Positions 64 to 16,535 are shown, numbered from the stretch's first letter. The stretch is DNA of 24,000 nucleotides from Pelagibius sp. (GCF_028289705.1 NZ_JANQOI010000176.1:1-24000); one strand, 5' to 3'. Program-made: numbers and translations. Notes: generated from the sequence alone by a model not told the origin.

Positions 64-393
64 TTAGAGCAGATTCACCAGGCTCGATGGATCGCTCCCG
101 CGATTCCATCGCGCCAGGATCTGCTCTAGGCGGTTGCCGAATGCTCTGCAGAGCGCTGCGTCGTGCAGCTCTGCTACCTGTTCGCCGGCGTTACAGATCG
201 ATGTTGCTGCCGGATTTGTGGCGCAAGGCTTTGACTCATCGGTTAGTTGTCGGCTGTTGCCCGGAAATCCGCTGTAACGCCTGCGGACGAAGTGCCGGTG
301 GGAGGAAAAAGTGAAGGCTTCGAAATCAAGTGCTTGGCAGCTTGGCGTGGTCCTTGCTTGCGATTCACTGTTGAGGAGATCGCCGTCTGTCAT
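64..393 (-). CDS. Hypothetical small protein (weak call)
   Basis: This is the C-terminal part of track ORF 64..708 starting from the internal ATG at 393 (MTDGDLLNSES...RLEQILARWNRGSDPSSLVNLL). Third-position GC over the last ~40 codons is about 70%, above the local GC. A hairpin follows the stop. I recognised no family motif, and the start is uncertain. Confidence 0.2.
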   Translation of the reverse strand: MTDGDLLNSESQARTTPSCQALDFEAFTFSSHRHFVRRRYSGFPGNSRQLTDESKPCATNPAATSICNAGEQVAELHDAALCRAFGNRLEQILARWNRGSDPSSLVNLL

Positions 394-420: not shown

Positions 421-792
421 GTGCAGAACCAAGACCCTCAATGGCTCCAAGCTTTGCGCCGCCGCGGGCGCGCGGCGACCGCAGGGCTCGCCCTTTTCCT
501 GTTCGCATTTGCCGTCGCGCAGCCTGCTTTTGCGGACCCTCTCCCACGAATTCTGGAAGGCAGCGGTGACGACGCCCTGGCGAAGGTTCTTGCCGACGAA
601 GAGCTGGCAGGGGTGCGCGGGCGAGGGTTGGAAGGGGGAGACCTTACAGCGGTTGGGATGGGGCCCATCGCGGTCATTCTCTGGGATGAACTGACGGAAA
701 CTCAGCAAGGCAAGCTACAGGGGCCCCAGATCTCCCACAGCACAGGCATGGGCAATGGGCAGTCGAACAGTCTGGTCACCCATCAGCAATAG
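421..792 (+). CDS. Small Sec-secreted protein ending in a single Fap-type repeat; first gene of the Fap-like cluster
   Basis: In frame with track ORF 247..792. GTG at 421 is preceded by AGGTG (409-413); TTG at 454 is an alternative start. Signal peptide RRRGRAATAGLALFLFAFAVAQPAFA|DP. The C-terminus ISHSTGMGNGQSNSLVT (730-780) aligns with FapB-like repeat 1, INQSAGDGNLQSNTAFI, at 8 of 17 identical positions. Confidence 0.6.
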   Translation: MQNQDPQWLQALRRRGRAATAGLALFLFAFAVAQPAFADPLPRILEGSGDDALAKVLADEELAGVRGRGLEGGDLTAVGMGPIAVILWDELTETQQGKLQGPQISHSTGMGNGQSNSLVTHQQ

Positions 793-1348
793 GGAGCGAT
801 TCGTCCCGGCGTTCCGCTGCCGGCTGTTATCACCGCTTGCTGTTGCCTTGGCCCTGCTCGCCGTGGCCGCCCCTGAGCTCGATGCGCAGGAGAGCGAACT
901 GCGCGAGCCCGGCGTGATCGTGCTGAGGGAGGTTCCGCCACGTATTGCCGTCAGACCAGCTCTGCCGGCGCCGCCCTTCCTGGTGAGGACGGCGCCTGAG
1001 ATCGACGTCTCGGCGATGAGCCGCATCAGCCCTGCCCTGATGTCCGCCCTCCCGATTGCCAGGGGTGAGCTGCTGAGCGATCTGGAAGCCGCAACCATCG
1101 CCCCCGACATGCCAATCCTGTCCGGCACGGCCCGCCTCGTCACCGCCGGCAGTGGCAGCCTGGTCTCGCCGGCTCTGGCCGGGGGCTCCCGGCAAGCGGG
1201 TGTCCGGCCTGTCGCGGACGGCATCCGCTCGAGCCTGGCGGCAGCGGGGCTGCTCTCGCGGTCGACCGTCAATGGCAGTGATGGCGCCGTCCAGCAAGCG
1301 ACGCGCGGACTGGGCACGACCATCCGCAATGCGCTTGTCCCAAGATGA
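755..1348 (+). CDS. Secreted Ala/Ser/Pro/Arg/Gly-rich protein occupying the fapA position
   Basis: ATG at 755 overlaps the upstream gene by 38 nt. The hydrophobic signal-like segment is LLSPLAVALALLAVAAPELDA|QE. Third-position GC is high in this frame. Composition is low-complexity and probably disordered. I recognised no family motif; the FapA analogy is positional only. Confidence 0.55.
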   Translation: MGSRTVWSPISNRERFVPAFRCRLLSPLAVALALLAVAAPELDAQESELREPGVIVLREVPPRIAVRPALPAPPFLVRTAPEIDVSAMSRISPALMSALPIARGELLSDLEAATIAPDMPILSGTARLVTAGSGSLVSPALAGGSRQAGVRPVADGIRSSLAAAGLLSRSTVNGSDGAVQQATRGLGTTIRNALVPR

Positions 1349-1367
1349 GCGTCCGGAGCAAGGCACG

Positions 1368-1982
1368 ATGACCGATCGGATCGGATGGAGACTTGCAAGC
1401 GCCCTTGCGGTCCTGGCCGTGGCGCTCTGCCCCGCGGCGGCCTTTGCCGAGGAGCTGTTCGGCCGGACGATCATAGACGACGAGGCCCTGCGAGACTTCA
1501 CAGGGGCCGCCCTGATCAATCAGTCGGCCGGTGACGGGAACCTGCAGTCCAACACCGCCTTCATTGCCACAAACGCCGAGGCGCAGGCGCGGGTGCGTAT
1601 CTCGACGGTCCAGCTTTCGGCCGCCACTCCCGACGAAACGGTTCTCGATGCCTTCGCGTTGATCGAAGGTGATGCCTTTGCCGATGCACAGGGCGTGCTT
1701 CTGGTGACTCAGGGCGCGGGGCGAAACAATCTGCAGATCAATCACCTCGCGGCGGCCCTGGGTTTGGAAGGAGAGGTCCTTGTGGAGTCCGAGCTCAGCC
1801 AGAGCCGGGCCAATGCCCTCTCGCCGCTAGCCGAAGAGCGGGAAGGAAACCGGCTCGCCCATGTCGGGCCGGGGGCCTTCCGCGATGCCGGCGGTGTCAT
1901 CCAGGTCAACCAGGTCGCGGGGCAGGAGAACGCGACCTTCAACCGCTTTGTGCTGGGCGTATCCTCGAACGCGCTGCCCTAG
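1368..1982 (+). CDS. fapB: FapB-like amyloid subunit with three imperfect Asn/Gln/Gly/Ala repeats
   Basis: Internal ATG of track ORF 1152..1982, with GGAG 9 nt upstream. Signal peptide WRLASALAVLAVALCPAAAFA|EE. Repeats: FTGAALINQSAGDGNLQSNTAFIA (1497-1568), FADAQGVLLVTQGAGRNNLQINHLAAAL (1674-1757) and FRDAGGVIQVNQVAGQENATFNRFVLGV (1878-1961). It lies directly upstream of the FapC-like gene. Confidence 0.7.
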   Translation: MTDRIGWRLASALAVLAVALCPAAAFAEELFGRTIIDDEALRDFTGAALINQSAGDGNLQSNTAFIATNAEAQARVRISTVQLSAATPDETVLDAFALIEGDAFADAQGVLLVTQGAGRNNLQINHLAAALGLEGEVLVESELSQSRANALSPLAEEREGNRLAHVGPGAFRDAGGVIQVNQVAGQENATFNRFVLGVSSNALP

Positions 1983-2340
1983 GGGCTTTCGTGTTTTGAC
2001 GGCACCAGCCCGCTTCCCCTCCTACGACCAGACCTCTCGCCGGATTTCGGCAGCGCGTGATGCCGCGCACTGTCCGGCGGCGTTACAGCCGCACGCAAAA
2101 CTCAAAAGACCGCGCGTCTTCAGGTCTTTGACGGCAGGGGGGCGGGATTCGTGTAACGGCGGCGGACAGTGGTTGTCCTCGGGCTCTTTGCCGCCGCGGG
2201 AAAAGTCCGATCCAATTCAAAGGTTTCCGAGATTGGCACCGATCTTGCGTATTAGGGAGCAGGGGAAGCCTGCTGCAGCAGTTGGCGCGTGTGCCCCGCC
2301 AGCGACCCTTACGGGTCGAGGAACAACAGGAGATTGAGCA

Positions 2341-3195
2341 ATGAACACCAGATTGGGTTTGTTTGCCATGATCGCCGTCGGGGTATCCGCGCTCGTCGCT
2401 GTACCCATGGGCGCCTTGGCGCAATCGACCAGTGTCACCTTGACCAAGTCCTACGATGAAGACGTCGATGTCGACTACGACAACACCATCGATGTTGACA
2501 TCACCAAGGACATCGATGTCGAGAAGGACCTGAACTACACCGGAACCGTGGTGATCTCCGGTAACCTCAACGTCTCCGAGGCCGCCTTGTCGCTGATCGA
2601 CAACAAGCAGATCATCGATGACAACCTCGTCGAACCGCGGGGCGACGATCCCAGCATCACCAACATCACCGTGATCGATGGGACCGTGCTGAATGCGGCA
2701 CAGGGCAACATCGGTCTCAACGTGGCGGTTGGCGACAACCTGCTGCAAGAGAATGCGGCGGCTCTGTCGGCGATCGGCACCACCTCGGCTGCGGGATCGA
2801 GCGACGCCGAGATCTTCAGCATCCAGAAGACGATCAACAACGATTTCGACGAGAGTGAGGGCGATTCAGAGGTCCTCAACCAGATCCAGTTGTTGGGCGA
2901 CGTTCTGGGTGGGGCCTCGGGCAACGCCGGCGTGAACGTCGCAGCGGGTGCCTTCAATGCCCAGAAGAATGCCCTGGCGCTTGCTGCGGTGACCGGCACG
3001 GCCACCTTGTCGGAGGCGACGGCTGCGGTCCTGCAGGAATCGACCTTCAACGATACCTGGCACGCGCAGACCACCAACGACGTGAAGTTGGGCGATCAGG
3101 TCGCGGCCGGCTTCGTTGGCAACATCGGCATCAATCTGACGTCCGGTACCAACAATCTCCAACAGAACGCGATGTCCATCTCATCGGTTCAGTAG
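2341..3195 (+). CDS. fapC: FapC-like major functional-amyloid subunit
   Basis: Strong RBS AGGAGA (2328-2333). Signal peptide LFAMIAVGVSALVAVPMGALA|QS. It has three 30-aa imperfect repeats with the G-N-x-G-[LVI]-N-[VL]-[AT]-x-G-x-x-N-x-Q-x-N-A core that I remember from Pseudomonas FapC (GVNVAAG...N.Q.N). The protein is rich in N, Q, G and A and contains no Cys. Confidence 0.8.
   Translation: MNTRLGLFAMIAVGVSALVAVPMGALAQSTSVTLTKSYDEDVDVDYDNTIDVDITKDIDVEKDLNYTGTVVISGNLNVSEAALSLIDNKQIIDDNLVEPRGDDPSITNITVIDGTVLNAAQGNIGLNVAVGDNLLQENAAALSAIGTTSAAGSSDAEIFSIQKTINNDFDESEGDSEVLNQIQLLGDVLGGASGNAGVNVAAGAFNAQKNALALAAVTGTATLSEATAAVLQESTFNDTWHAQTTNDVKLGDQVAAGFVGNIGINLTSGTNNLQQNAMSISSVQ
2686..3189 (+). repeat. 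Three imperfect 30-aa coding repeats (R1-R3) within the FapC-like gene, separated by 42-aa and 36-aa linkers
   Basis: R1 2686-2775 VLNAAQGNIGLNVAVGDNLLQENAAALSAI. R2 2902-2991 VLGGASGNAGVNVAAGAFNAQKNALALAAV. R3 3100-3189 VAAGFVGNIGINLTSGTNNLQQNAMSISSV. Confidence 0.85.
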
Positions 3196-3217
3196 TCACG
3201 GTCATTGCTTACGGTCT

Positions 3218-3268
3218 GAGGGGGCTCCGGCCAAATCCATTGGTCTGAGCCTCCTCTTTCTTCCTCTT
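3218..3268 (+). terminator. Intrinsic-terminator-like hairpin immediately after the FapC-like stop codon
   Basis: 5' arm GAGGGGGCTCCGGCCAA (3218-3234), loop atcca, 3' arm TTGGTCTGAGCCTCCTC (3240-3256). That gives 17 positions with 14 Watson-Crick pairs, 2 G-U pairs and 1 mismatch, followed by the T-rich tract TTTCTTCCTCTT (3257-3268). Confidence 0.6.
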
Positions 3269-3290
3269 GGCAGGCCCGGGGGGCGCAACG

Positions 3291-4013
3291 ATGAGCGACA
3301 GATCCTCTTGGATATCTTGGATCGCAGTCGGCTTTGCCCTGGCCATCCTGGTTGGCTTCGCTCAAGCCGGTCGCGCGGGAGAGATCCGCTTTGGCGGGGT
3401 CCTGCCGGGCGGCGGTGTCATCAACAAGCCGGTGGTCAGTCTGCGCGAAGCCAGGTACGAGGGCCTGGTGCCGCAGGAGACCGACTTCAGTTGCGGTGCG
3501 GCCTCGGTGGCGACCATCCTGAAGTACGCCTACGGGAAGCCCACCAACGAATTTGAAGTTCTGAAGGCCATGCTTGCGGTCAGTGACGAGGAGACCGTCT
3601 TGCGCAGGGGCTTCTCGCTGCTCGATATCAAGCGCTATGTGGAATCCATCGGCATGAATGCCGTGGGGTTCAGGATCGCTCCCGAGAATCTGGACAAGAT
3701 CAAGATCCCCTCCATCGTCCTTCTGGATATCAGGGGCTATCGCCACTTCGTCGTCCTCAAGAAATCGACCAACGGCAAGGTCTACGTGGCCGACCCCGCC
3801 CTGGGAAACAAGGTCCTGCGCAAGGAGGATTTTGTCGCGTCCTGGAACGGGGTGGTCCTGGCGATCGTCGCGGAGGGCTATCAGGCCGATACCGCCCTGG
3901 CACAGGCGCAGGACCCGGTGAGTGCCAAGCGCCTGCTTGGCAGCCGGGCGCCGATCGTCAACGCCGACACCTTCGATTTCGGGACCCTTCATTCGGACCT
4001 GCACCGCTTCTGA
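3291..4013 (+). CDS. fapD: FapD-like periplasmic C39-family cysteine peptidase
   Basis: ATG at 3291 (the track ORF starts at 3267). N-terminal signal or anchor WISWIAVGFALAILVGFAQA. C39 signature: Q-x5-C in PQETDFSCGAAS (Cys codon 3492-3494), His in RGYRHFVVLKK (3744-3746), Asp in VYVADPALG (3792-3794). The position after the FapC-like gene matches fap operon order. Confidence 0.8.
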   Translation: MSDRSSWISWIAVGFALAILVGFAQAGRAGEIRFGGVLPGGGVINKPVVSLREARYEGLVPQETDFSCGAASVATILKYAYGKPTNEFEVLKAMLAVSDEETVLRRGFSLLDIKRYVESIGMNAVGFRIAPENLDKIKIPSIVLLDIRGYRHFVVLKKSTNGKVYVADPALGNKVLRKEDFVASWNGVVLAIVAEGYQADTALAQAQDPVSAKRLLGSRAPIVNADTFDFGTLHSDLHRF

Positions 4014-4323
4014 CCGCCCGCCCTAAGGTCCGGCCGGATCCGGAGGCCGGCTGGCGGAGGGAGTTTGACGGCCCTTGCGCGGTCCCGCAGGGCAGCTCCT
4101 TGTCGTGACAGTCACAGGTCCCGCATAGGGGGAATCCCCTATGGGGTTTCCCTTATTTACGGGCAGTCATTCCTGTGTCGACAATGACCGCTCTACTCCA
4201 GATGCAATCAAGTGCCTTTCGGCTTGAAGTTTGAAGGTGTCCGCGGCGCAGGCAGCGGGCGAGGGGCTGTCGACGGCCTGAGTTTCGGCTCTTGCCGTCG
4301 TCGGGACAGCAAAGGAGGGGCCG

Positions 4324-5259
4324 GTGAGACGTTTGGCCGGAAGTCCAAGCTGTACGCGCCTGCCGGCCCGGGTTTGCCGTCCCTTTACTCCAGGAAACCT
4401 GACGTCATTGATCCTGCTGCTGGCGGTCCTTCTGATGCTTGGCCCGGCGGCGAGCGGCTCGTCTTATCCCGATCTCAGCGCTTTTGAGAACGCCGCCGTG
4501 GTTCCGGACTCGGAACTGGCTGAGATGCGTGGGCGCTTCGTCGAAGGGGGTGAAGTCCAGCACTTCGGTATTCAGATGTTCACCGCCTGGCAGACCGGTG
4601 ACGGCGTGGTCCTCACCACCGGCCTGGAGTGGTCGGCCGACACTGCGGGTAACGCTCAGACGCCCACCATCAGCCTGCTTCAGTCACTGCCGGACGGCAC
4701 CATCGTCGATCCGGGAGCGGGACAAGGCCCGATATCGATCGATCCGCTGGAAGGGCTTGGCGGGGTGAATCCGGACATCGTCGAGGGACCGCCCCCTGTG
4801 CCTCTGCTCCTGACAGCCAATGCGGGCGGGCTGGAGACCGCCAGCGGTGTTGTCCAGAGCGTTCAGGCTGCGGGCGATGCGAACAGCATCGGCAACGACA
4901 TGCGCTTCAACGTCACCGAGGGGCAGGTCGCCGTCTCCTTTGCCCCGCCCCCGACGCCGCTCGGTCAACCCCTATCCCTGCTGGAGACGACGACGGTCGA
5001 GTTCGACGACGGAACGAGGGCCACCGCCTTCATTGAGCCGAACTCCATCGGCTACGTGGTCAGGATCGACGACTTCGGCACGGTCCTGCAGGAGGTGCGT
5101 GGCGGTGTCGGGCGGGTGGCCCAGCACGCAAACATTCGAAGTGACCTGAACGTCATCCGCAACACGGTGAACATCAACTTTGGACTGGCTCCCAGCGTCA
5201 ATGTGCTGCGGGCAAACGTCCGTTCGGTCTTCAACTTGACAAGGGATCTGCGCCGGTGA
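4324..5259 (+). CDS. FapE-like secreted protein (assigned by position plus one Fap-type repeat)
   Basis: GTG start at 4324 with strong RBS AAAGGAGGGG (4311-4320). Signal peptide LTSLILLLAVLLMLGPAASG|SS. The internal segment GVVQSVQAAGDANSIGN (from 4846) aligns with FapB-like R3, GVIQVNQVAGQENATFN, at 8 of 17 identical positions. It lies between the C39 peptidase gene and the channel gene. Confidence 0.55.
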   Translation: MRRLAGSPSCTRLPARVCRPFTPGNLTSLILLLAVLLMLGPAASGSSYPDLSAFENAAVVPDSELAEMRGRFVEGGEVQHFGIQMFTAWQTGDGVVLTTGLEWSADTAGNAQTPTISLLQSLPDGTIVDPGAGQGPISIDPLEGLGGVNPDIVEGPPPVPLLLTANAGGLETASGVVQSVQAAGDANSIGNDMRFNVTEGQVAVSFAPPPTPLGQPLSLLETTTVEFDDGTRATAFIEPNSIGYVVRIDDFGTVLQEVRGGVGRVAQHANIRSDLNVIRNTVNINFGLAPSVNVLRANVRSVFNLTRDLRR

Positions 5260-5377
5260 CGGAGCCTTGCCGAAGCGTCCGAAGCCGTCAGGCGATGCCG
5301 CCATTCCTTCCGTTGGCGGCCGGCCCCGACGCCGTCGACGGCAAGCCGCACAGCGCCGAATGGGGAGATGAGACGGC

Positions 5378-5980
5378 ATGATCTTCGCTTCACCCTGGCC
5401 GATTGGCCTCTGCGCCCTGATCCTTCTGGGTCTCGCCCCGGCGCCTGTCAGCGCCGCCGATGCCAATGGACAGTTTGCCACAAAGGGCATCGGCGTTCTG
5501 AGTTGCGGTGTATTCGTCGAAGCCCGTTCGCAAGGCGCGGCGACGGCTTCACGCTTGAAGGACTGGCTTGATGGTTACCTCACAGCAACCAATCGTTACG
5601 AGCCGAACACCTTCGATGTTGCCCCTTGGGGGCCCAGTGAGGTGTTCGCGATCATCATTGAGAACCATTGCCGGCAGAATCCCGATGAAGGTTTCGCCCA
5701 GGCAGCGCAGCGGCTGGTTCTCTCGATCGGCAATGATCGGCTGGCCCGGCGCTCGCCGTTGCGCACCGTGACGGCGAACGGAGCTAACACGCAGATCTAT
5801 GACGAGGTGCTCCGGCGCGTGCAAGCGCAGTTGGCCGAGCGCGGTCTCTACAACGGGCAGCCCGACGGTGTGTTTGGGCCCCGAACGCGGGATGCGATCG
5901 CCACCTTCCAGATCAGCGAAGGCATGGACGGTACCGGGCTTCCCGATCCGCTGACGGTCTGGAAGCTGGTCCAGCCCTGA
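5378..5980 (+). CDS. Secreted protein with a C-terminal peptidoglycan-binding (PG_binding_1-like) domain
   Basis: Signal peptide PIGLCALILLGLAPAPVSA|AD. The C-terminus QAQLAERGLYNGQPDGVFGPRTRDAIATFQISEGMDGTGLPDPLTVWKL matches the classic PGB1 pattern (G.Y.G..DG.FG..T..A...FQ...GL...G). I did not recognise the N-terminal domain. Confidence 0.75.
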   Translation: MIFASPWPIGLCALILLGLAPAPVSAADANGQFATKGIGVLSCGVFVEARSQGAATASRLKDWLDGYLTATNRYEPNTFDVAPWGPSEVFAIIIENHCRQNPDEGFAQAAQRLVLSIGNDRLARRSPLRTVTANGANTQIYDEVLRRVQAQLAERGLYNGQPDGVFGPRTRDAIATFQISEGMDGTGLPDPLTVWKLVQP

Positions 5981-6038
5981 GACGGCGCCGGGGTAGCCGT
6001 TCGGAAGACAGGAGTCGATTGGTCTGTTGAGGACGCCT

Positions 6039-7313
6039 ATGAGAATTGTCGCAGCGGTCTTGGGTGTTTGTCTGGCGGGGCTCCTCTGCCCCGCTGAAAC
6101 GCCTGCGCAGGAAACCGAGGTCGAGGTCCTGCGGCGCCAGGTCGAGCGGATGAGCAAGACCATCGAAACGCAAAATCGGGCCCTTCTGAACCTGGAAAGG
6201 CGCCTGCGCACCATTGAACAAGCGGCCCCGGCACCGCCGGCACCCACGCCGCCGGCTCAGCCGGCACCTCCCTTGGCGCCCGCGCCGCAGCAGCAGGATG
6301 CACCGCCTGCCCAGCCGCCGACGGCGGACGCCGAGGAAGAACCGGTAAAACGGGAAGCCGAGGCTCCCCGCTCGCTCGAGGTGGTCGCCGGCGAGGCTCA
6401 GGGCTTCTTCGGCGAACGCTTCACCATCGAGCCCTCCGTGACCTACACGCGGACCGACCGCTCGCAGATCGTGCTCAACGGCTTCCTGGCCCTCGACGCC
6501 ATCTTCCTGGGAAACATCAGCGTCGACGAGGTGGAGTCCGACATCGTGACTTTCGATATCACTGGGCGGATGGGGATCGGCGAAGACCTTCAGGTGGATG
6601 TCAACGTGCCCTACATCTACCGAATGTCGAACTTCATTTCCGGGGGAGCGGGCGGCGGCTCGGCGAGCCAGATCGAGAAGGCCATCAGCTCCGACAACCT
6701 CGGAGACATCAGCTTCGGCGCGAATTATCGCATCATCAACGAGACCGAGAACATACCGGACGTAGTGTTGAACCTGAGAGGCCGGGCGCCGACCGGCAAA
6801 CACCCCTTCGGCATCGAGGTGAGAGAGGTCGAGGGAAGCTCGGGGAACCTGACGGTTCCCGAGGAGCTGCCGACCGGCAACGGTGTCTGGCAGATATCCG
6901 GGGGCGCGTCGGTCCTGAAGACAATCGATCCGGCGCTGGTCTTCGCCAACTTCGACTATTTCTACAACTTCGAAAGGGATTTCAGCGATATCGGCTCTTC
7001 GCCCGGCGATCAGCCCGGCACGGTGGACGTCGGTGACTCCTTTCAGGTCGGCTTTGGCGTGGCTTACGCGCTGAACGAGGATTTCAGCCTCAGTCTCTCC
7101 TACTCGCAGCGCTGGTTCGAGGAGACGCGGACCAAGCTCGACGGTGGCGACTTTCAGGACGTCATCGGCAGCGACGCCAACGTGGCCCGGCTGAATACCG
7201 GCATGACCTACGCCCTCAACGACTACTTCACCCTCGTCACCAACGTCTCGGCCGGTCTGACGGAGGATGCGCCGGATGTGGAGGTGCGGGTGGGCTTCCC
7301 CATCAACTTCTGA
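6039..7313 (+). CDS. fapF: FapF-like outer-membrane amyloid secretion channel (coiled coil, Pro-rich linker, beta-barrel)
   Basis: ATG at 6039 with GAGGA 5 nt upstream (the track ORF starts at TTG 6027). Signal peptide RIVAAVLGVCLAGLLCPAETPA|QE. Heptad-like helix ETEVEVLRRQVERMSKTIETQNRALLNLERRLRTIEQ (6111-6221). Pro/Ala linker (6222-6344). The remainder shows alternating beta-strand patterns and ends VRVGFPINF with a terminal Phe, which is an OMP beta-signal. Confidence 0.8.
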   Translation: MRIVAAVLGVCLAGLLCPAETPAQETEVEVLRRQVERMSKTIETQNRALLNLERRLRTIEQAAPAPPAPTPPAQPAPPLAPAPQQQDAPPAQPPTADAEEEPVKREAEAPRSLEVVAGEAQGFFGERFTIEPSVTYTRTDRSQIVLNGFLALDAIFLGNISVDEVESDIVTFDITGRMGIGEDLQVDVNVPYIYRMSNFISGGAGGGSASQIEKAISSDNLGDISFGANYRIINETENIPDVVLNLRGRAPTGKHPFGIEVREVEGSSGNLTVPEELPTGNGVWQISGGASVLKTIDPALVFANFDYFYNFERDFSDIGSSPGDQPGTVDVGDSFQVGFGVAYALNEDFSLSLSYSQRWFEETRTKLDGGDFQDVIGSDANVARLNTGMTYALNDYFTLVTNVSAGLTEDAPDVEVRVGFPINF

Positions 7314-7342
7314 CGCCGGCGCCACCGCAGCCGATCCGACAG

Positions 7343-7360
7343 CCAAGCGGAACCGCTTGG
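7343..7360. terminator. Hairpin between convergent genes (the FapF-like gene and the response regulator gene)
   Basis: CCAAGCGG aa CCGCTTGG forms a perfect 8-nt inverted repeat. There is no U-tract on either strand, so terminator function is uncertain. Confidence 0.35.
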
Positions 7361-7378
7361 ACGTCAGTCGAAAACGCT

Positions 7379-7990
7379 CTAGGTGCCGATGCCCGCGGTC
7401 AGCGCAATGCGCACGAGATGGGCGAGGTTGCGGGCCTGCAGCTTTTCCATGACACGGGCCCGGTGGATTTCCACCGTCCGGGGGCTGATGCCCAGGTCAA
7501 AAGCGATCGACTTGTTGGACTGCCCGGCCACCAGTTGCTCCAGGACCTCCCGCTCGCGCGAGGTCAGGCGGGCGAAGCCACTGGGCAATGGCCTTTCCGC
7601 GCGGGCTGTTGAAGAGGTCTTCTTCCCGCGGAGAAGGGCACGCTCCACGCTCTCCAGCACCGTATCGCCGCTCAACGGTTTCTGGATGAAGTCCACCGCA
7701 CCCAACTGCATTGCACTGACAGCGCTGCGCACATCGCCCTTTCCGGTGATCATGATCACCGGCAGATCGTGGCGCCCATCCTTCAGCCGAGCCTGAACCT
7801 CCAGGCCGTTCAGGTCGGGCAGGTTGAGGTCAAGCAGCAGACAATCGCCAGAGGGCGCTCCTCCGCCGTCGAGCAGCGCCGTCCCGGATCCGTAGGTCTG
7901 CACCGCGAACCCGGCGGTTTCCAAAGTCATCCTCAAGGAGTCGAGAACTCCCTCGTCGTCATCGACCACAAGGACGGTCGACTTGCTCAT
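7379..7990 (-). CDS. FixJ/NarL-family response regulator (receiver domain plus LuxR-type HTH)
   Basis: The internal ATG at 7990 of track ORF 7379..8185 gives MSKSTVLVVDDDEGVL. Receiver motifs: DDD, LLLDLNLPD and FIQKP. The C-terminal LuxR HTH is LTSREREVLEQLVAGQSNKSIAFDLGISPRTVEIHRARVMEKL. Confidence 0.9.
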   Translation of the reverse strand: MSKSTVLVVDDDEGVLDSLRMTLETAGFAVQTYGSGTALLDGGGAPSGDCLLLDLNLPDLNGLEVQARLKDGRHDLPVIMITGKGDVRSAVSAMQLGAVDFIQKPLSGDTVLESVERALLRGKKTSSTARAERPLPSGFARLTSREREVLEQLVAGQSNKSIAFDLGISPRTVEIHRARVMEKLQARNLAHLVRIALTAGIGT

Positions 7991-8861
7991 CCATCGCCTC
8001 GCCTGTTGGAAGAAGGATATGGAAATCGGTCCCCTTACCCGGTTGTGAGCTTGCCGAAAGCCGTCCGCCATGCGCGGAGACGATGGCGTGGCAAATCGAC
8101 AGCCCGACCCCCATGCCGTCGGGCTTGTGACTGCGGATCGGCTTAAAGGTCCGCCTTGCGATCTGCGGAGGGAGGCCCGGTCCATTGTCAGAAATGATCA
8201 CTGCGACCAGATCATCGGCCTTCAGGTTGGTCCTTATGGCGATCGATCCGTTTTGACGGTCTCGCAGGGCTTCGATGCTGTTCCTGATCAGGTTGGCGAT
8301 GGCGAGCTGCACCTGGATTCTATCGATCTGCAGGAACGGCAAGGACCGGTCCAGCGCCAGTTCCAGCTTCACCGCATGCTCGCGCGCCATTGGGGACAGC
8401 TCGGCACTGCTCCGCTCGACGATGGCGTTGATGTCCTCGGCCGTGCGCTCCAGGTCCTCGTGATCCATGAGGGATCGCAGCCTGTGGAAGACCTGGGAGG
8501 CACGCGCAGATTCCTCGATCGCTTTCTCGATGCACTCGAGAGCTCTGTCGGGCACCTCCCCGCCGTGGGACACAAGGGTTGTGCGGCAGGCCTGAACGTA
8601 GTTGGCGATGGCGGACAGAGGTTGCGCCAACTCGTGCGCAAACACCGAAGCGGCATCAAGCTCCGCGGACCTGGCCTGCGCTCCAAGGCGGACTGCAGTG
8701 AAGTCCGCTAGCGCGCTGGAGCGCTCGTTGCGCTGCAGTGAGTAAGGCTCGCCGGAGGGTCGGGCTGATCCATTGGCCTTGCGGCGTGTGTCCGGCGGCG
8801 GGTGCGGTGGAACAGCCTGGCCACAGTCTTCCTCTGCGTATGGTCTGCGATCCATGCTCAT
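7959..8861 (-). CDS. Cytoplasmic histidine kinase (DHp plus HATPase) with no recognisable sensor or TM domain
   Basis: RBS GGGGGGAA lies upstream of the ATG at 8861. H-box FAHELAQPLSAI. N/G boxes LIRNSIEAL, DNGPGL and GMGVGLSI. Only about 75 low-complexity residues precede the H-box. The 3' end overlaps the response regulator start by 32 nt. Confidence 0.85.
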   Translation of the reverse strand: MSMDRRPYAEEDCGQAVPPHPPPDTRRKANGSARPSGEPYSLQRNERSSALADFTAVRLGAQARSAELDAASVFAHELAQPLSAIANYVQACRTTLVSHGGEVPDRALECIEKAIEESARASQVFHRLRSLMDHEDLERTAEDINAIVERSSAELSPMAREHAVKLELALDRSLPFLQIDRIQVQLAIANLIRNSIEALRDRQNGSIAIRTNLKADDLVAVIISDNGPGLPPQIARRTFKPIRSHKPDGMGVGLSICHAIVSAHGGRLSASSQPGKGTDFHILLPTGEAMDEQVDRPCGR

Positions 8862-9650
8862 CTTGAGTTCCCCCCTGTTGGGGTCCGAGACAAGACAGTT
8901 CTGGGCATGCAGTGCAGGGAAGCGACGTGGTGCGACCGGGCATCGCAGGGATCAGGTCAAAATACTGTCGCCATCTTCTTGCACGCCTCTCCCTCGGCCT
9001 GGCGCAGTCGTGGGAGCGTTTCGTTCGCTCGTCCGGGATTGCGCTATGCACCTGACCGTTGCTGCAAGATTCTGAAGCCGCCCGCCGGATTGGATTGCTG
9101 TTGCGCTCGTCCGAGCGGGCAAACCTCCCACTGAATCATCTATAACATTCAAGCAAGACGGACTGATGTCAGACGGGTTGGCTCTCCTCCGCTCTTTTGC
9201 GCCTTTGTGTACTCAGGGCGCCGGTTCAAATCGCGAAGCTGCGTCGACACTCACGTGTCAATCGTCCCGACCGTCCATGGCGCCGTCATGGGACCGCACC
9301 GACCGATTCGACAGGCTCGCCGTCAGAACCAGTTTCTCTGCCTCAAGGGGTATGGAACAGGAGACCTAAAAATTCAGCCGTACCCACCAATACAATCATG
9401 GTGAGAATTCGAACAATCTAAAGTACGCCTGTCAGTTAACCATATCACGCTGGCGAACTCAATCAGGGGGACAAGACAGACTCCTCAAAATCACTAGATC
9501 TCTGTGACAAATTGGTGGCCTGAGGTCGTTGAGGGCATTTAGGAGCGCTCCAAAGCGGGAGACGTCAGTCAAAGGCCTCAGACAGGCACGTCCCTGGCGC
9601 TCGCCGAGACCTTGAAACCCGGTATTCGATGGCCCACGACCGTATGCAAG

Positions 9651-9678
9651 GGCGGCATTCCTGAATGCGTCCGTTTTT
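9651..9678 (+). terminator. Terminator-like hairpin plus T5 inside the ORF-free spacer
   Basis: GGCGGCATTC ct GAATGCGTCC, where 8 of 10 arm positions pair around a 2-nt internal bubble, followed directly by GTTTTT (T-run 9674-9678). No annotated gene ends here. Confidence 0.35.
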
Positions 9679-10089
9679 GGAGCAGTCTATAAGCGATGCC
9701 AGTGATCCGAAAGGACCATTTCCCTATCAGTACCGCCAATGTCAAAGGTCAGCCGGGCGAGGCCCTCACCGTCCTCATCACTCGGCCGTTAAAGCGCAAT
9801 AGGTGGGTCTCTTGATCGAGATTGCGTCTTCAGGTTGTAGATCAATGGGGAAGTGGGGTGCCCGCGCTGGATCCTGAACGAATGCTGACCTGCCGCGGAG
9901 CCGCGGGAAGGCCGGCACGGCGATCCCGCCGCAACCGGCTATGCCATGGTCAGATGCCCCAACCGGCCCACGGAAGAGTGCGACGGTTCTCTCCCCCGCC
10001 GGCAGTGATTATAGTCCCCGGGAACGGGCGCGTGCCGCAGCGGCGCAGCTCTTGAAGACTCCACCCGAGGACCTGAAAGGCTCTCTGCA

Positions 10090-13454: not shown

Positions 13455-14138
13455 CTATCCCTCGTGGAGCGCCTTGAAGAGTCGCTGCTGGCTCTCGAAG
13501 ATGTGGTTGCGGATCGCGAAGCCCAGGCCGATGGGGTCTTCCACGTCGATGCGCCGGACCACCTCGTCGACCTCGTCGTGGACCGCGTTGATGGTGTCTT
13601 CCCAGGGGATCGAGCGGAGCAGCAGCAGCCACATGCGCGAGGTCTGAAAGAAGAGATTGCATTGCATCTCCCGCAGGGTCTTGTTGGCGGCCAGGTCCAT
13701 CAGCCCGACGAAGTAGCGGATGTTGGTCTCGGCAAAGCCGATCTCGTCCCCCTGCTGCAAGGCGAGAAATTCCTCGCCGCAGCGGACGAAGAACTCCCGC
13801 GTGCCCTCGGCAAAGGGGGTTTCGATGAAGGGGCCCATGGCCTCGGCCAGGATCATGCGCACCGCATAGACATCGGCCAGCAGCTCCGGCTCGATCCGCG
13901 TCACCAGGGTCCCGATGCCGTGCTTGATTTCCACCAGCCCCTCGTGCTCCAGCATGGAGAAGACCCGGCGGATCGGCGAGCGGCTGACCGAATACTCCCT
14001 GGCCAGTTCCTCCTCGCGCAACAGCGTATCCGGCGGGTAGCGGTTGGTGCAGATGCGGTAGCGGATTTCCTGATAGATCGCGGCGATCCGCTGCTGGGGA
14101 GCGGTCCGGGCGGCGGTTTGATTGAGGGCGGGGATCAT
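13455..14138 (-). CDS. GntR-family regulator, last gene of the ehuBCD transcription unit (EhuR-like by context)
   Basis: HTH region IYQEIRYRICTNRYPPDTLLREEELAREYSVSRSPIRRVFSMLEHEGLVEI with a helical effector domain. ATG at 14138; the alternative TTG at 14153 would overlap the ehuD stop. Confidence 0.8.
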   Translation of the reverse strand: MIPALNQTAARTAPQQRIAAIYQEIRYRICTNRYPPDTLLREEELAREYSVSRSPIRRVFSMLEHEGLVEIKHGIGTLVTRIEPELLADVYAVRMILAEAMGPFIETPFAEGTREFFVRCGEEFLALQQGDEIGFAETNIRYFVGLMDLAANKTLREMQCNLFFQTSRMWLLLLRSIPWEDTINAVHDEVDEVVRRIDVEDPIGLGFAIRNHIFESQQRLFKALHEG

Positions 14139-14149
14139 CGAGGTCTGTC

Positions 14150-14818
14150 TCAAAACTCCTGCAGGCCCGGCAGGGCGAACTTCCGGTTCACGACCCGGGT
14201 GAGCTTCGCGGCCGCGAGGCTGAGGATCAGGAAGAAAACGCCGGCCAGGGTGATGGGCTCGGTATAGCGGAAGGTATCATTGCCGATGATCCGGGCCGTG
14301 GCGACCAGCTCGATCACCGTGATCGCCAAAAGAACCGGCGTTTCCTTGAACATGGTGACCAGATAGTTGCCGAGCGGCAGGATGATCGGCGGGATCGCCT
14401 GGGGCAGAATGACGCGCCTCAGCGTTCGCGCGGTGGAGAGATTGATGGCCTTGGCCGCTTCCCATTGGCCGCGGTCGACCTGGGCGAATCCGGAGCGGTA
14501 GACCTCGGCGCAGTAGGCAGAATAGTGCATGCCCAGGGTCAGGACGCCGCAGACCATGGCGGGTAGGATCACCCCCGCCAGCGGCAGGAAGTAGTACATG
14601 GCGAAGAGCTGGATCAGCACCGGCGTGGTGCGGATGAACTCGACCCAGAGCCGCACCACGAAACTGAGGACGGGGATCTCCAACAGGCTGATGATGGCCC
14701 AGAGCAGCCCAAGCACCGCCGCCAGGGCAAAGCCCATCACCGTCGCCTGCAGGGTGACCAGCGAGGCCTCCGCCATCTGCGGCAGGATCTCCAGGGTATA
14801 GGCCCAGTCCCAGTTCAT
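14150..14818 (-). CDS. ehuD: Ectoine/hydroxyectoine (polar amino acid type) ABC transporter permease EhuD
   Basis: Multi-TM protein with a His/Glu/Gln/Arg/opine-family permease pattern (EAAKAINLSTARTLRRVILPQAIPPILPLGN). It overlaps ehuC by 4 nt. The name is assigned from order and eut context. Confidence 0.8.
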   Translation of the reverse strand: MNWDWAYTLEILPQMAEASLVTLQATVMGFALAAVLGLLWAIISLLEIPVLSFVVRLWVEFIRTTPVLIQLFAMYYFLPLAGVILPAMVCGVLTLGMHYSAYCAEVYRSGFAQVDRGQWEAAKAINLSTARTLRRVILPQAIPPIILPLGNYLVTMFKETPVLLAITVIELVATARIIGNDTFRYTEPITLAGVFFLILSLAAAKLTRVVNRKFALPGLQEF

Positions 14819-15543
14819 CGGGCGTCACCCAGCCGGATGCCGCGGGAGTAGTGCTTCTCCAGGAGCTTCATGCCGATGGTGATGGAAAGGCCGATGGCGA
14901 AGTACATGAAGAGGACGATGGTGAAGACCTCGACAGTCAGATAGGTGGTCTGGTTGAGCTGGTAGGCCGTGTAGGTCAGATCGGAGATGCCGATGAAGGA
15001 AACCAGGGCGGTCAGCTTGAAGAGCTGTATGGCCAGATTGCCGAAGGGCGGGATCATGATGCGGATCGCCTGCGGCAAAATGATCCGGCGCATGCGGTTG
15101 AAGCTGCTCATGTTGAGGGCGATGGCCGCCTCGTACTGCGCCTTGGGAACGGCGCGGATTGAGGCCTCCACCACGATTGCCGCATAAGCACCCACGTTCA
15201 GGGAGACGCCCAGGACCCCGGCCGTGAAGGGGTCGATCTTCGGCCCAAAGAGCGGCAGCACATAGAACAGCCAGAACAGTTGGACGAGGGCCGATGTCCC
15301 TCTGAAGATCTCAACGTAGCTGATGCAGAGCCAGCGCACCGGTGTCCAGGGCGAGAGCCGGCCGATGCCTGTCGCAAAGGCGATGATGACCGTCAGAATC
15401 ATCGAGACGACGACGATCTTGAGGGTCATCTCGGCGGCTTCGAGAAACACCAGCGCGCTGTCGACGAAGGGAGACCGCAGGAAATAGACCGCGCCCGCGA
15501 AGATGGTCACACAGAGGGTGACGATAAGCGCGCGGATGGACAT
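14815..15543 (-). CDS. ehuC: Ectoine/hydroxyectoine ABC transporter permease EhuC
   Basis: Multi-TM protein with permease EAA-loop EAAIALNMSSFNRMRRIILPQAIRIMIPPFGN. It lies between the binding-protein gene and the second permease gene. Confidence 0.8.
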   Translation of the reverse strand: MSIRALIVTLCVTIFAGAVYFLRSPFVDSALVFLEAAEMTLKIVVVSMILTVIIAFATGIGRLSPWTPVRWLCISYVEIFRGTSALVQLFWLFYVLPLFGPKIDPFTAGVLGVSLNVGAYAAIVVEASIRAVPKAQYEAAIALNMSSFNRMRRIILPQAIRIMIPPFGNLAIQLFKLTALVSFIGISDLTYTAYQLNQTTYLTVEVFTIVLFMYFAIGLSITIGMKLLEKHYSRGIRLGDAR

Positions 15544-15594
15544 AGGGCGGTCTCGAAAGGGTTTGTCGTGGCTGCCGTGCGGAAGCGGGCCGGC

Positions 15595-15621
15595 CCCGTA
15601 GCGATCTTAGACCGCTACGGG
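15595..15621 (-). other. Intercistronic stem-loop between ehuB and ehuC
   Basis: CCCGTAGCG (15595-15603), 9-nt loop atcttagac, CGCTACGGG (15613-15621): a perfect 9-bp stem inside the 92-nt ehuB-ehuC gap. Confidence 0.55.
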
Positions 15622-15635
15622 TGCCCCTTGCAGCC

Positions 15636-16535
15636 TTAGAGACCGGCGCCGCAGAGTTCCTTCATGCTCTTGGTGGGGGCGTCCGCGGGCCCGAACCCCC
15701 AGGCCGAGGCCATCTTGGCGTAGTTGCCGCTTTCGACGTAGTTGGCCAGCTCGGCCTGGAAGGCGTCGCGGAAGGCCATGTTGGCTTTCAACTCGTCGCC
15801 ATCGCCCTTGGGGAAGCCGATGGCGCCGTGGCCCTGGTAGATCTCGCCTGCAATCTCGGTGATGGAGCCCGAGCTTTCCATGTTGATGAGATCGCCGGCG
15901 GTGCGGACGATGTCGTTGATGGCGAAGGCGGAGAGGGCGAAGCCGTCCGCGCGCCCGGAGATCACCGCTGAGATGCCGGCGGCCTTGTCGCTGACCTTCA
16001 GCAGCTTTTCGTCGGGCACGCCGTCCTTCTTGGCCAGGGTCTCTTCCGTGCCGCCGGCCAGCACCGCGAGCTTGGCCCCGTCGGTCTTGGCGATGTCTTT
16101 GAAGTTATGCAGGCTCTTGGGGTTGCCCTTCTTCACGAGGTAGGCGGCACCCTGGCCCCAGGTGGGCTCGGCGAAGAGAATCTGCTCGCAACGCTTCGGG
16201 CGGATGTAGATTCCTGCCGCGCCCATGTCGATCCGGCGGGCGACCAGCGAGGGGATCAGAGCGCCGAAATCCATGGCCACGAACTCGAGCTTGGTGATCC
16301 CCATTGCCCCGAGGACGTGCTTGACGATCTCCACCTGTTCGCCGGTGAAGCTGCCGTCGGCCTGCTTGTATCCATAGGGCGCGTAGCCTGCGATGCCGAT
16401 GGTCGCGCCCTCGGCGCGGTATTTCTCGAGCAACGGATTGTCGGCCGCGACGGCGGCTGTCGGCATGAGGGTGGTCGCCAGGAGGAGGGCGGCGACGAGG
16501 CTGACGGCTCCCCCGATTTTGCTGATGAAGTTCAT
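15636..16535 (-). CDS. ehuB: Ectoine/hydroxyectoine ABC transporter substrate-binding protein EhuB
   Basis: The internal ATG at 16535 of track ORF 15636..16625, with RBS GGAGGCG. Signal peptide MNFISKIGGAVSLVAALLLATTLMPTAAVA|AD. Type-II periplasmic binding-protein fold pattern. It is adjacent to the permease genes and eut genes. Confidence 0.8.
   Translation of the reverse strand: MNFISKIGGAVSLVAALLLATTLMPTAAVAADNPLLEKYRAEGATIGIAGYAPYGYKQADGSFTGEQVEIVKHVLGAMGITKLEFVAMDFGALIPSLVARRIDMGAAGIYIRPKRCEQILFAEPTWGQGAAYLVKKGNPKSLHNFKDIAKTDGAKLAVLAGGTEETLAKKDGVPDEKLLKVSDKAAGISAVISGRADGFALSAFAINDIVRTAGDLINMESSGSITEIAGEIYQGHGAIGFPKGDGDELKANMAFRDAFQAELANYVESGNYAKMASAWGFGPADAPTKSMKELCGAGL

Follow-up and report, generated by a model that had tools for sequence, protein, structure and literature searches.

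The locus described here raises two questions: whether a marine alphaproteobacterium carries a complete system for making Fap functional amyloid, and what the genes that it adds to the known set might contribute. The locus is a run of eight co-oriented genes at positions 421-7,313 of a 24,000-nucleotide (nt) stretch of one strand of a Pelagibius sp. contig (GCF_028289705.1, NZ_JANQOI010000176.1:1-24000); this whole stretch is referred to as the window. An earlier note on this DNA read the locus as a remote homologue of the Pseudomonas fapABCDEF cluster with extra content, and the profile matches, the matches to solved FapF and FapC structures and the canonical gene order uphold that reading. 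We put the probability at about 0.85 that 421-7,313 is a complete Fap biogenesis cluster in which the extra genes take part; among the loci compared, its subtype is confined to those of the alphaproteobacterial type. The six-gene Fap system is already known; new here are two conserved extra genes, g1 and g7, of which g7 marks the alphaproteobacterial versions of Fap.

In a 2013 survey, Fap was limited to Beta-, Gamma- and Deltaproteobacteria (PMC3792158), and the statement of the earlier note that Fap is mainly found in these classes agrees with it. After the GTDB-wide screens of 2025, which reported 1172-1602 Fap clusters in many Pseudomonadota families and in other phyla, however, an alphaproteobacterial occurrence is no longer surprising. 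These screens counted six hidden Markov model (HMM) families only; therefore, they would have missed g7 and g1. Within an incomplete coverage of the literature, we found no paper on alphaproteobacterial Fap clusters, on a peptidoglycan-binding Fap gene, or on either extra gene. Loci for comparison were sampled at one genome per GTDB species. A genome scan with a single FapF protein as query returned nothing, and an alignment query was used instead; it gave over 534 relatives of FapF, and the comparison was made with the best 80.

Fap genes in canonical order

Eight plus-strand open reading frames (ORFs) are present in 421-7,313, and all eight products have Sec-type N-termini (basic n-region, hydrophobic stretch, AxA-like site), which were judged by eye from the translations, a heuristic reading and not predictor output. 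The eight co-oriented genes for secreted proteins of the earlier note are thus as it had described them; we refer to them as g1 to g8 (aa, amino acids):

421-792, plus strand: g1, small secreted protein (123 aa); FapE-like N-terminal motif (LADEELAGVRGRG), conserved VILWDE block and C-terminal GNGQSNSLVT
755-1348, plus strand: g2, divergent FapA (disordered periplasmic chaperone of FapB and FapC) as judged by an iterated FapA HMM; overlaps g1 by 38 nt
1368-1982, plus strand: g3, FapB homologue (minor/nucleator subunit) with three imperfect repeats (NCBIfam NF058557, E 1.6e-27)
2341-3195, plus strand: g4, FapC homologue (major fibre subunit), Cys-free, with an acidic, D-rich N-terminal region and three imperfect repeats (NCBIfam NF058558, E 2.2e-22)
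3267-4013, plus strand: g5, FapD homologue, periplasmic C39 cysteine peptidase with Q70/C76/H160/D176 (NCBIfam FapD, E 4.2e-77; Pfam Peptidase_C39)
4324-5259, plus strand: g6, FapE homologue (minor fibre-associated protein); conserved N-terminal motif VVPDSELAEMRGRF and a single repeat-like unit (NCBIfam FapE, E 2.9e-25)
5378-5980, plus strand: g7, periplasmic two-domain protein with a putative HdeA/HdeB-like four-helix domain (residues ~27-120), a beta-hairpin and PG_binding_1 (142-198)
6027-7313, plus strand: g8, FapF homologue, outer-membrane secretion channel (NCBIfam FapF, E 3.4e-132; NCBI start ATG 6039)

Independent gene callers, applied to public copies of the same contig, confirm the coordinates of g1, FapD, FapE, g7 and FapF; the public calls give 123 aa for g1 (P0190, GTG 421), 311 aa for FapE, 200 aa for g7 and 424 aa for FapF (ATG 6039). 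The FapF-like product is 100% identical to RefSeq WP_299625059.1 (Pelagibius sp.), which is annotated as a 'transporter'. Pelagibius belongs to Alphaproteobacteria, Rhodospirillales, and this placement of the contig agrees with the alphaproteobacterial look that the earlier note had ascribed to the neighbouring genes. The GC content (0.60-0.67) is even over the cluster and its flanks, and tRNA and Rfam scans of the window gave no element.

The gene order is g1-fapA-fapB-fapC-fapD-fapE-g7-fapF; i.e., the canonical A-B-C-D-E-F order is kept, and two genes are added to it. The NCBIfam models of FapB, FapC, FapD, FapE and FapF were matched significantly, as was Pfam Peptidase_C39. Since six profile matches stand in the canonical Fap order, the Fap reading goes far beyond chance, and we regard the Fap identity of the cluster as firm on sequence grounds.

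In the product of the last gene, NCBIfam FapF is matched end to end (441 bits, equivalog cutoff 700), and residues 107-427 match the solved FapF 5o65 (phmmer E 1e-87). After the signal peptide, there are a heptad-rich coiled coil (28-66), a linker with 68% Pro+Ala (67-106), and the region of the plug and 12-strand barrel (107-428), with a PTG motif at 255 and a C-terminal Phe; the coiled coil, Pro-rich linker and Phe-ending barrel had all been recognised in the earlier note. The alphaproteobacterial FapFs separate from all others in a crude neighbour-joining tree.

The two N/Q/G/A-rich proteins do contain three imperfect repeats each. The FapB-like match has 96 bits (equivalog cutoff 190) and covers 180/190 profile positions, with repeat cores at residues ~46-66 (GAALINQSAGDGNLQSN), 110-123 and 177-190. 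The FapC-like repeats are centred on GNIGLNVAVG (121-130), GNAGVNVAAG (193-202) and GNIGINLTSG (259-268); they fit (core GNxGxNxAAGxxNxQxN) the published FapC repeat consensus, gasGNxGxNxaaGxgNqQN (PMC12392863), and align to the solved FapC fibrils 9nqd/9u4u repeat on repeat (phmmer E 1e-12). By analogy with these fibres, the products of the cluster would be expected to form amyloid.

The FapC-like protein contains no Cys, as the earlier note had said, but this is not the non-canonical trait for which the note took it. Among the loci compared, the C-terminal CxxC of FapC is found almost only in Pseudomonas and close relatives, some of which are without it, too; FapC of Halomonas, Methylotenera and Polaromonas lacks it, as does every alphaproteobacterial-type copy. 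Thus, the lack of Cys is ordinary outside Pseudomonas and was rejected as a distinguishing trait. The N-terminal region of FapC has an acidic periodic stretch, DEDVDVDYDNTIDVDITKDIDVEKDLN (residues ~39-65, window 2455-2535), which is kept in the paralogues of locus L005; D-rich stretches similar to it are also present in Halomonas FapC. In L001/L005 (a metagenome-assembled genome, MAG, of Alphaproteobacteria; 7.3-Mb contig), fapB is followed at 1440-6880 by five tandem fapC paralogues (279-285 aa) spaced by gaps of ~270-330 nt, with a sigma-54-type motif before each. In published surveys, 94.5% of Fap clusters have two fapB/C genes only.

The earlier note counted two upstream secreted genes in place of a single fapA. 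This is correct for g1, which is extra, but not for g2, which, as far as its sequence tells, is FapA. A FapA HMM, iterated from the bona fide FapA of locus L011 (NCBIfam FapA 142.9 bits, cutoff 110) with the clade of the window excluded, matches g2 over residues 21-196, nearly its whole length (E 1.5e-8), and this match led us to reject g2 as a novel gene. The motif GVIVLREVPPR is common to g2 and FapA, and the g2 orthologues in L005 and L002 match FapA models.

Two points speak against the Fap reading. All NCBIfam Fap matches are under the equivalog cutoff, i.e., the products are divergent homologues, and the function is therefore extrapolated from relatives that are 30-50% identical. In addition, g2 of the window has no direct NCBIfam FapA match, the link being made through relatives.

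A protein with a predicted peptidoglycan-binding domain encoded before fapF

The gene inserted between the fapE-like and fapF-like genes is present, as claimed earlier, but it is no one-off, for it is conserved in loci of the alphaproteobacterial type. Its C-terminal domain matches Pfam PG_binding_1 (PF01471; residues 145-194, E 1.1e-11, 45.1 bits versus a threshold of 23), which agrees with the peptidoglycan-binding protein of the earlier note, and the same model is matched by 55/55 g7 relatives. The N-terminal domain is conserved in the alignment of these 55 relatives; C43 and C98 are invariant, and the domain carries the motif GYLTA.NRYEP.TFD..PW. An AlphaFold2 (AF2) model (mean confidence, pLDDT, 90.6) has four helices (43-116), a hairpin and a three-helix peptidoglycan-binding domain.

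With moderate confidence, we consider the N-terminal domain to be HdeA-like. Pfam HdeA (PF06411) is matched over the full profile by 23/55 relatives at E up to 5, and two relatives, seen individually, exceed its gathering score of 22 (P0173, 24.1 bits; P0206, 25.8 bits); it should be noted that this Pfam model includes the signal peptide, and scores may be inflated. In an hhalign comparison with E. coli HdeA, both Cys are in register. Several results weigh on the other side. That alignment has a probability of 3% and used a single HdeA sequence; g7 of the window itself has no Pfam HdeA match; and Foldseek matches of g7 to YmgD and HdeA are weak (E 0.45-2.9, target TM-scores ~0.6). A profile of the g7 family, searched against PDB sequences, retrieved peptidoglycan-binding domains only, not HdeA; thus, the link to HdeA is made by the Pfam matches in relatives together with the weak fold matches.

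That g7 and g1 are conserved among related loci is firm. Immediately upstream of fapF and on the same strand, g7 is found in 13/14 Fap loci of the alphaproteobacterial type: 12 genomes with alphaproteobacterial names (of Rhodospirillales or Sphingomonadales type) and the metagenome contig L002, which groups with them. The hosts are Kiloniellaceae, Rhodospirillales, an Alphaproteobacteria MAG, four Erythrobacter, Allosphingosinicella, Sphingomonadales, Erythrobacteraceae, Alteraurantiacibacter and the window, and FapF identity across the g7-bearing loci goes down to ~42%. None of ~65 Fap loci from beta, gamma or Bryobacterales/Acidobacteria hosts has g7, and the N-domain HMM found nothing in them even at E 10. 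The slot is occupied differently in L009 (a Gammaproteobacteria MAG), where PAS-like and GGDEF-like ORFs, read from the translation, lie between fapE and fapF (8725-9821); they are possibly one split diguanylate cyclase gene. On a JGI metagenome contig (3300043331, the context of P0155), a Fap cluster includes a g7-like gene of 238 aa with an insertion, and the FapF of this cluster (542 aa) has a SPOR peptidoglycan-binding domain, which independently connects FapF with the cell wall a second time. These observations are compatible with g7 as a holder or tether, a role that it may play at the channel.

Two facts count against a dedicated role in Fap. The rearranged Fap cluster of Sphingomonas hankyongi (L056) has no g7 within 10 kb, and g7 may therefore be dispensable. 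Furthermore, the family of the g7 N-domain is large, ~1000 representative clusters of mostly ~200-aa proteins in an exhaustive search (a word-indexed search gave 64), and mostly not linked to Fap; g7 therefore did not originate as a component dedicated to Fap. In the family tree, the copies from Fap loci group on branches of their own. In 7/8 contexts, the non-Fap relatives are encoded directly after genes of exported proteins (one is among transposases): the genes just upstream in L084, L085, L086/L087, L089, L090, L092 and L093 encode PEP-CTERM proteins (two), LTD/Exo_endo_phos proteins (two), a 5'-nucleotidase, a Choice_anch_L protein and a protein of 1666 aa. The ~200-aa g7 family may therefore act as a general partner in envelope export.

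A leader-like motif shared by FapE and g1

The Q/C/H/D motifs of the C39 peptidase, reported intact in the earlier note, are intact. FapD matches Pfam Peptidase_C39 (E 8e-22, 77.9 bits, cutoff 22) and aligns to the double-glycine protease LahT150 (6mpz), including Q70, C76, H160 and D176, and these catalytic columns are invariant in 75-76 of 78 FapD ORFs. The next gene encodes the secreted protein with one copy of the repeat that the note had placed there; the repeat-like unit, GVVQSVQAAGDANSIGN, is single in the product of 4324-5259. A Shine-Dalgarno-like AAGGAGG precedes the FapE start (GTG 4324) by 7 nt.

The first gene, g1, had no match in Pfam and NCBIfam searches. A word-indexed search found 5 close relatives, and an HMM iterated on small ORFs found 23 g1-like small ORFs upstream of fapA/fapB in other Fap loci; the iteration was limited to small ORFs after an unrestricted one had drifted into FapE/FapB. 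These ORFs are present in Halomonas and relatives, Methylotenera, Methylophilaceae, Methylophaga, Sulfuriflexus, a Gammaproteobacteria MAG and L002, and an ORF of Bryobacterales (Acidobacteriota MAG) is a marginal match (E 1.6e-4). The AF2 model of g1, from a four-sequence alignment, has pLDDT 47 and no readable fold.

The g1 family and FapE share an N-terminal motif (hhalign probability 93.7%, E 1.9e-7, 26 columns), located at residues ~56-72 of FapE and ~53-69 of g1; it was found across taxa in 61/74 FapE ORFs (loci L004-L083). The motif consists of hydrophobic residues at -12 and -4, D at -10, L at -7, and R-G-[R/K] followed by Y/F, and FapE has E at -8 as well. The counts at these positions in FapE are 61/61 (L/V/I at -12), 56/61 (E at -8), 58/61 (L at -7) and 57/61 (L/M/V/I at -4). 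The corresponding counts in the g1 family are 16/16 for L/I/V at -12, for L at -7 and for I/V/M at -4, and only 2/16 for E at -8. Gly at -2 is invariant in both (61/61 and 16/16).

Double-glycine leaders have the consensus LS..EL..I.GG. In comparison to such leaders, which are cleaved by C39 peptidases (bacteriocin/PCAT systems, LahT150), the FapE and g1 motifs have the same hydrophobic positions (-12, -7 and -4) and Gly at -2, and FapE has Glu at -8, which is not fixed in g1; the peptidase, FapD, aligns to LahT150. Conversely, Gly-Gly (or Gly-Ala/Ser) at -2/-1 was not found: position -1 is Arg/Lys in 61/61 FapE and 13/16 g1 motifs. Another difference is that double-glycine leaders start cytoplasmic precursors, whereas the FapE/g1 motif comes after the Sec signal peptide of a periplasmic protein. 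Since the motif and double-glycine leaders are in register, the likeliest clients of FapD would be FapE and g1; they are candidates, and RG[RK] is a candidate FapD recognition site. The g1 product would be a second protein bearing the FapE-type N-terminal motif. For the Pseudomonas system, the substrate of FapD has been stated as undetermined, and FapE alone loses its N-terminal ~70 residues (PMC5557850, PMC6173800).

Promoter-like motifs in the long intergenic gaps

The gaps between fapB and fapC (358 nt, 1983-2340) and between fapD and fapE (310 nt, 4014-4323) have the sizes given in the earlier note; both contain conserved motifs, and a further motif precedes g1:

343-358, plus strand: sigma-54-type (-24/-12) promoter-like motif TGGCGTGGTCCTTGCT; its end is 63 nt upstream of the g1 start
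2234-2249, plus strand: sigma-54-type promoter-like motif TGGCACCGATCTTGCG, inside the 358-nt gap, ending 92 nt before the fapC ATG
4124-4144, plus strand: palindrome CATAGGGG-GAAT-CCCCTATG (4124-4143) overlapping the 13-mer GAATCCCCTATGG (4132-4144), in the fapD-fapE gap

We used the pattern TGGC-N7-TTGC for the scan (sigma-54 consensus, TGGCAC-N5-TTGC). The 24-kb window has two matches, both on the plus strand and upstream of cluster genes; the one at 343 matches 10/12 consensus positions, and the one at 2234 reads TGGCACCGATCTTGC. It should be noted that 1.24 matches are expected, so the count as such is not above chance and tells against a promoter; the argument is one of position and conservation. 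The motif before fapC is conserved in three loci. In L002, it is at 6099; in L005, motifs precede seven genes, i.e., the five fapC paralogues, fapD and g7 (1326, 2486, 3667, 4788, 5900, 7084 and 9044). A VpsR-like sigma-54 activator adjoins the Fap cluster in L002, and no gene for such an activator can be seen in the window. For P. fluorescens, control of fapA by an enhancer-binding protein, BrfA, has been described (PMC13101488). A scan of the window for sigma-70 promoters found no sites, and a terminator scan gave a single site (minus strand, within fapC), fewer than expected by chance. Judging by these motifs, the cluster probably depends on sigma-54 for its transcription, and fapC is probably boosted from a promoter of its own.

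The palindrome in the second gap is perfect, with 8-bp arms. Apart from the window and its duplicate contig, L088, only one of all the loci compared has the 13-mer (allowing at most one mismatch), namely L002, where it is again in the fapD-fapE gap (8000-8012); in both the window and L002, it is followed by TATTTAC.

Neighbouring genes and other loci

One further feature of the window adjoins the cluster, by gene calls and Pfam:

7379-8861, minus strand: two-component pair, convergent to the cluster, with a LuxR/GerE-type response regulator (7379-7990) and a histidine kinase (7959-8861)

Downstream of fapF, L002/L003 have such a pair of a LuxR-type regulator and a histidine kinase as well, and L001 has a GerE-type regulator there; by this association only, the pair is a possible regulator of the cluster. 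Far outside the cluster, at ~13500-16500, the GC skew reaches +0.13 and the AT skew +0.22 over a run of minus-strand ORFs. In Halomonas sp. NO4 (L040), there are tandem Fap gene sets (1014-4839 and 5273-9750), the first without its own fapF, and P. frederiksbergensis (L071/L073) has two separate Fap loci on one contig.

Comparison with known systems

Compared to Pseudomonas fapABCDEF (sp. UK4 and P. aeruginosa PAO1), the window has the same six families, and their order is unchanged; it also has FapB and FapC with three imperfect N/Q/G/A-rich repeats each, a periplasmic C39 peptidase that keeps the catalytic Cys, a FapF with coiled coil, disordered linker, plugged barrel and PTG, and the N-terminal motif of FapE. 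The differences are (i) in sequence, with identity of ~30-50% and all products under the NCBIfam equivalog cutoff; (ii) in gene content, with g1 before fapA and a gene for a putative HdeA-like/peptidoglycan-binding protein between fapE and fapF; (iii) in FapC, which lacks the C-terminal CxxC and whose N-terminal region is acidic; and (iv) in the long fapB-fapC gap, which has its own putative sigma-54-type promoter. The clusters of Halomonas, Methylotenera and Methylophilaceae (L054, L040, L021, L025 and others) share with the window the g1-like ORF before fapA/fapB and FapC without CxxC; in contrast to it, they have no g7-type gene, and their FapC is longer, with Gly-rich C-termini.

The g7 N-domain appears to resemble HdeA/HdeB (PF06411) and YmgD in that it is predicted to be small, helical and periplasmic, has two Cys at the positions of the HdeA disulfide, and contains the motif GY/GF..A.N. 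It differs from HdeA/HdeB in its fusion to PG_binding_1, in a sequence match that is marginal and, for the window copy, undetected by the Pfam model, and in a genomic context of matrix/surface-protein export, not acid resistance. A comparison with the accessory factors of curli has been drawn before (PMC5557850). CsgE/CsgF/CsgC of the E. coli type VIII secretion system are alike by analogy only, as small periplasmic or surface factors that hold or guide unfolded amyloid subunits at the outer-membrane channel; no sequence or fold relationship of the window proteins to them was found, and curli factors do not bind peptidoglycan.

Proposed mechanism and alternatives

The mechanistic model is taken from the Pseudomonas Fap system (PMC5557850, PMC6173800). 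All products would enter the periplasm through Sec, where disordered FapA would hold FapB and FapC back from aggregation and proteolysis by FapD would license secretion. FapB, FapC and FapE would then pass the outer membrane unfolded, through trimeric FapF, and outside the cell FapC would be polymerised as a cross-beta fibre, with one layer per repeat and three repeats. The g7 product may act at the FapF end of this pathway as a peptidoglycan-tethered, HdeA-like periplasmic holder or adaptor that either keeps unfolded substrates near the channel or fixes the periplasmic assembly of FapF to the wall, and FapE and g1 would be FapD clients through their shared N-terminal motif. In its strongest form, the proposal is an alphaproteobacterial Fap machine of seven or eight components in which g7 is a required peptidoglycan-anchored holdase that couples unfolded subunits or the FapF coiled coil to the wall, with the FapE/g1 motif as the site of FapD recognition/cleavage in Fap systems generally; taken as a whole, this is tentative, and we are rather doubtful that all of it would hold.

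A simpler explanation is that the cluster is a canonical fapABCDEF, with g1 and g7 as passengers that have no part in amyloid biogenesis. Six genes suffice in Pseudomonas, as do five without fapA (PMC6173800), g1 has neither a recognisable domain nor a confident predicted fold, and the size of the g7 family outside Fap loci and the absence of g7 from L056 are as one would expect of a passenger. Such a passenger, however, would hardly stay between fapE and fapF, in the orientation of both, throughout two orders over which the flanking Fap proteins have diverged to 24-45% identity, or have its Fap-linked copies on their own branches of the family tree; similarly, g1-like ORFs keep their slot before fapA/fapB in Gamma- and Betaproteobacteria and in an Acidobacteriota MAG, and they carry a FapE-specific motif. 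We consider this explanation unlikely. Alternatively, instead of being a chaperone or tether, g7 could be a protective or inhibitory factor analogous to the small helical immunity proteins of the periplasm; it might, for example, shield peptidoglycan or periplasmic enzymes from the neighbouring exported protein. Non-Fap g7 relatives are indeed encoded after secreted hydrolases (nuclease/phosphatase-like, 5'-nucleotidase), the typical position of an inhibitor or immunity gene, and one family member has a faint match to the Rap1a immunity protein (E 0.14). Conversely, HdeA matches 23 members and Rap1a one; Fap substrates and PEP-CTERM proteins are not enzymes, and FapD is the sole catalytic neighbour in the Fap cluster that could need inhibiting. 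Thus, an inhibitory function of g7 is very unlikely.

The remaining possibility concerns the cluster as a whole, which might encode a non-amyloid exporter of the FapD/FapF type (C39 peptidase and COG4313-like barrel), e.g., the putative FilB/FilC pilus system. NCBIfam pilus_FilB (4.3e-34) and pilus_FilC (6.7e-17) match as well, and co-localised fapD/fapF homologues without other fap genes are present in other phyla (PMC6173800). The Fap models, however, far outscore the Fil models, with 258 versus 118 bits for the peptidase and 441 versus 62 bits for the barrel; homologues of FapA, FapB, FapC and FapE are all there, in canonical order, and the FapC-like protein matches the solved FapC fibrils repeat by repeat. 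The pilus reading is so improbable that we rejected it, and the reading of 421-7,313 as a complete Fap biogenesis cluster is preferred.

Implications

Fap is one of two model systems for bacterial functional amyloid, and mechanistic work has almost all been done on Pseudomonas. Given the 'transporter' label in RefSeq and matches below the equivalog cutoff, similar clusters may go unnamed in automatic annotation. The leader-like motif in FapE, duplicated in g1, provides a specific, testable site for FapD. The step from the periplasm to FapF is still poorly understood, and a lineage-specific, cell-wall-binding and chaperone-like g7 would be a natural experiment on the transit of unfolded subunits across the periplasm to FapF; since members of the g7 family are also encoded beside further exported proteins of matrix and surface, the family may be a partner of more general use in envelope export.

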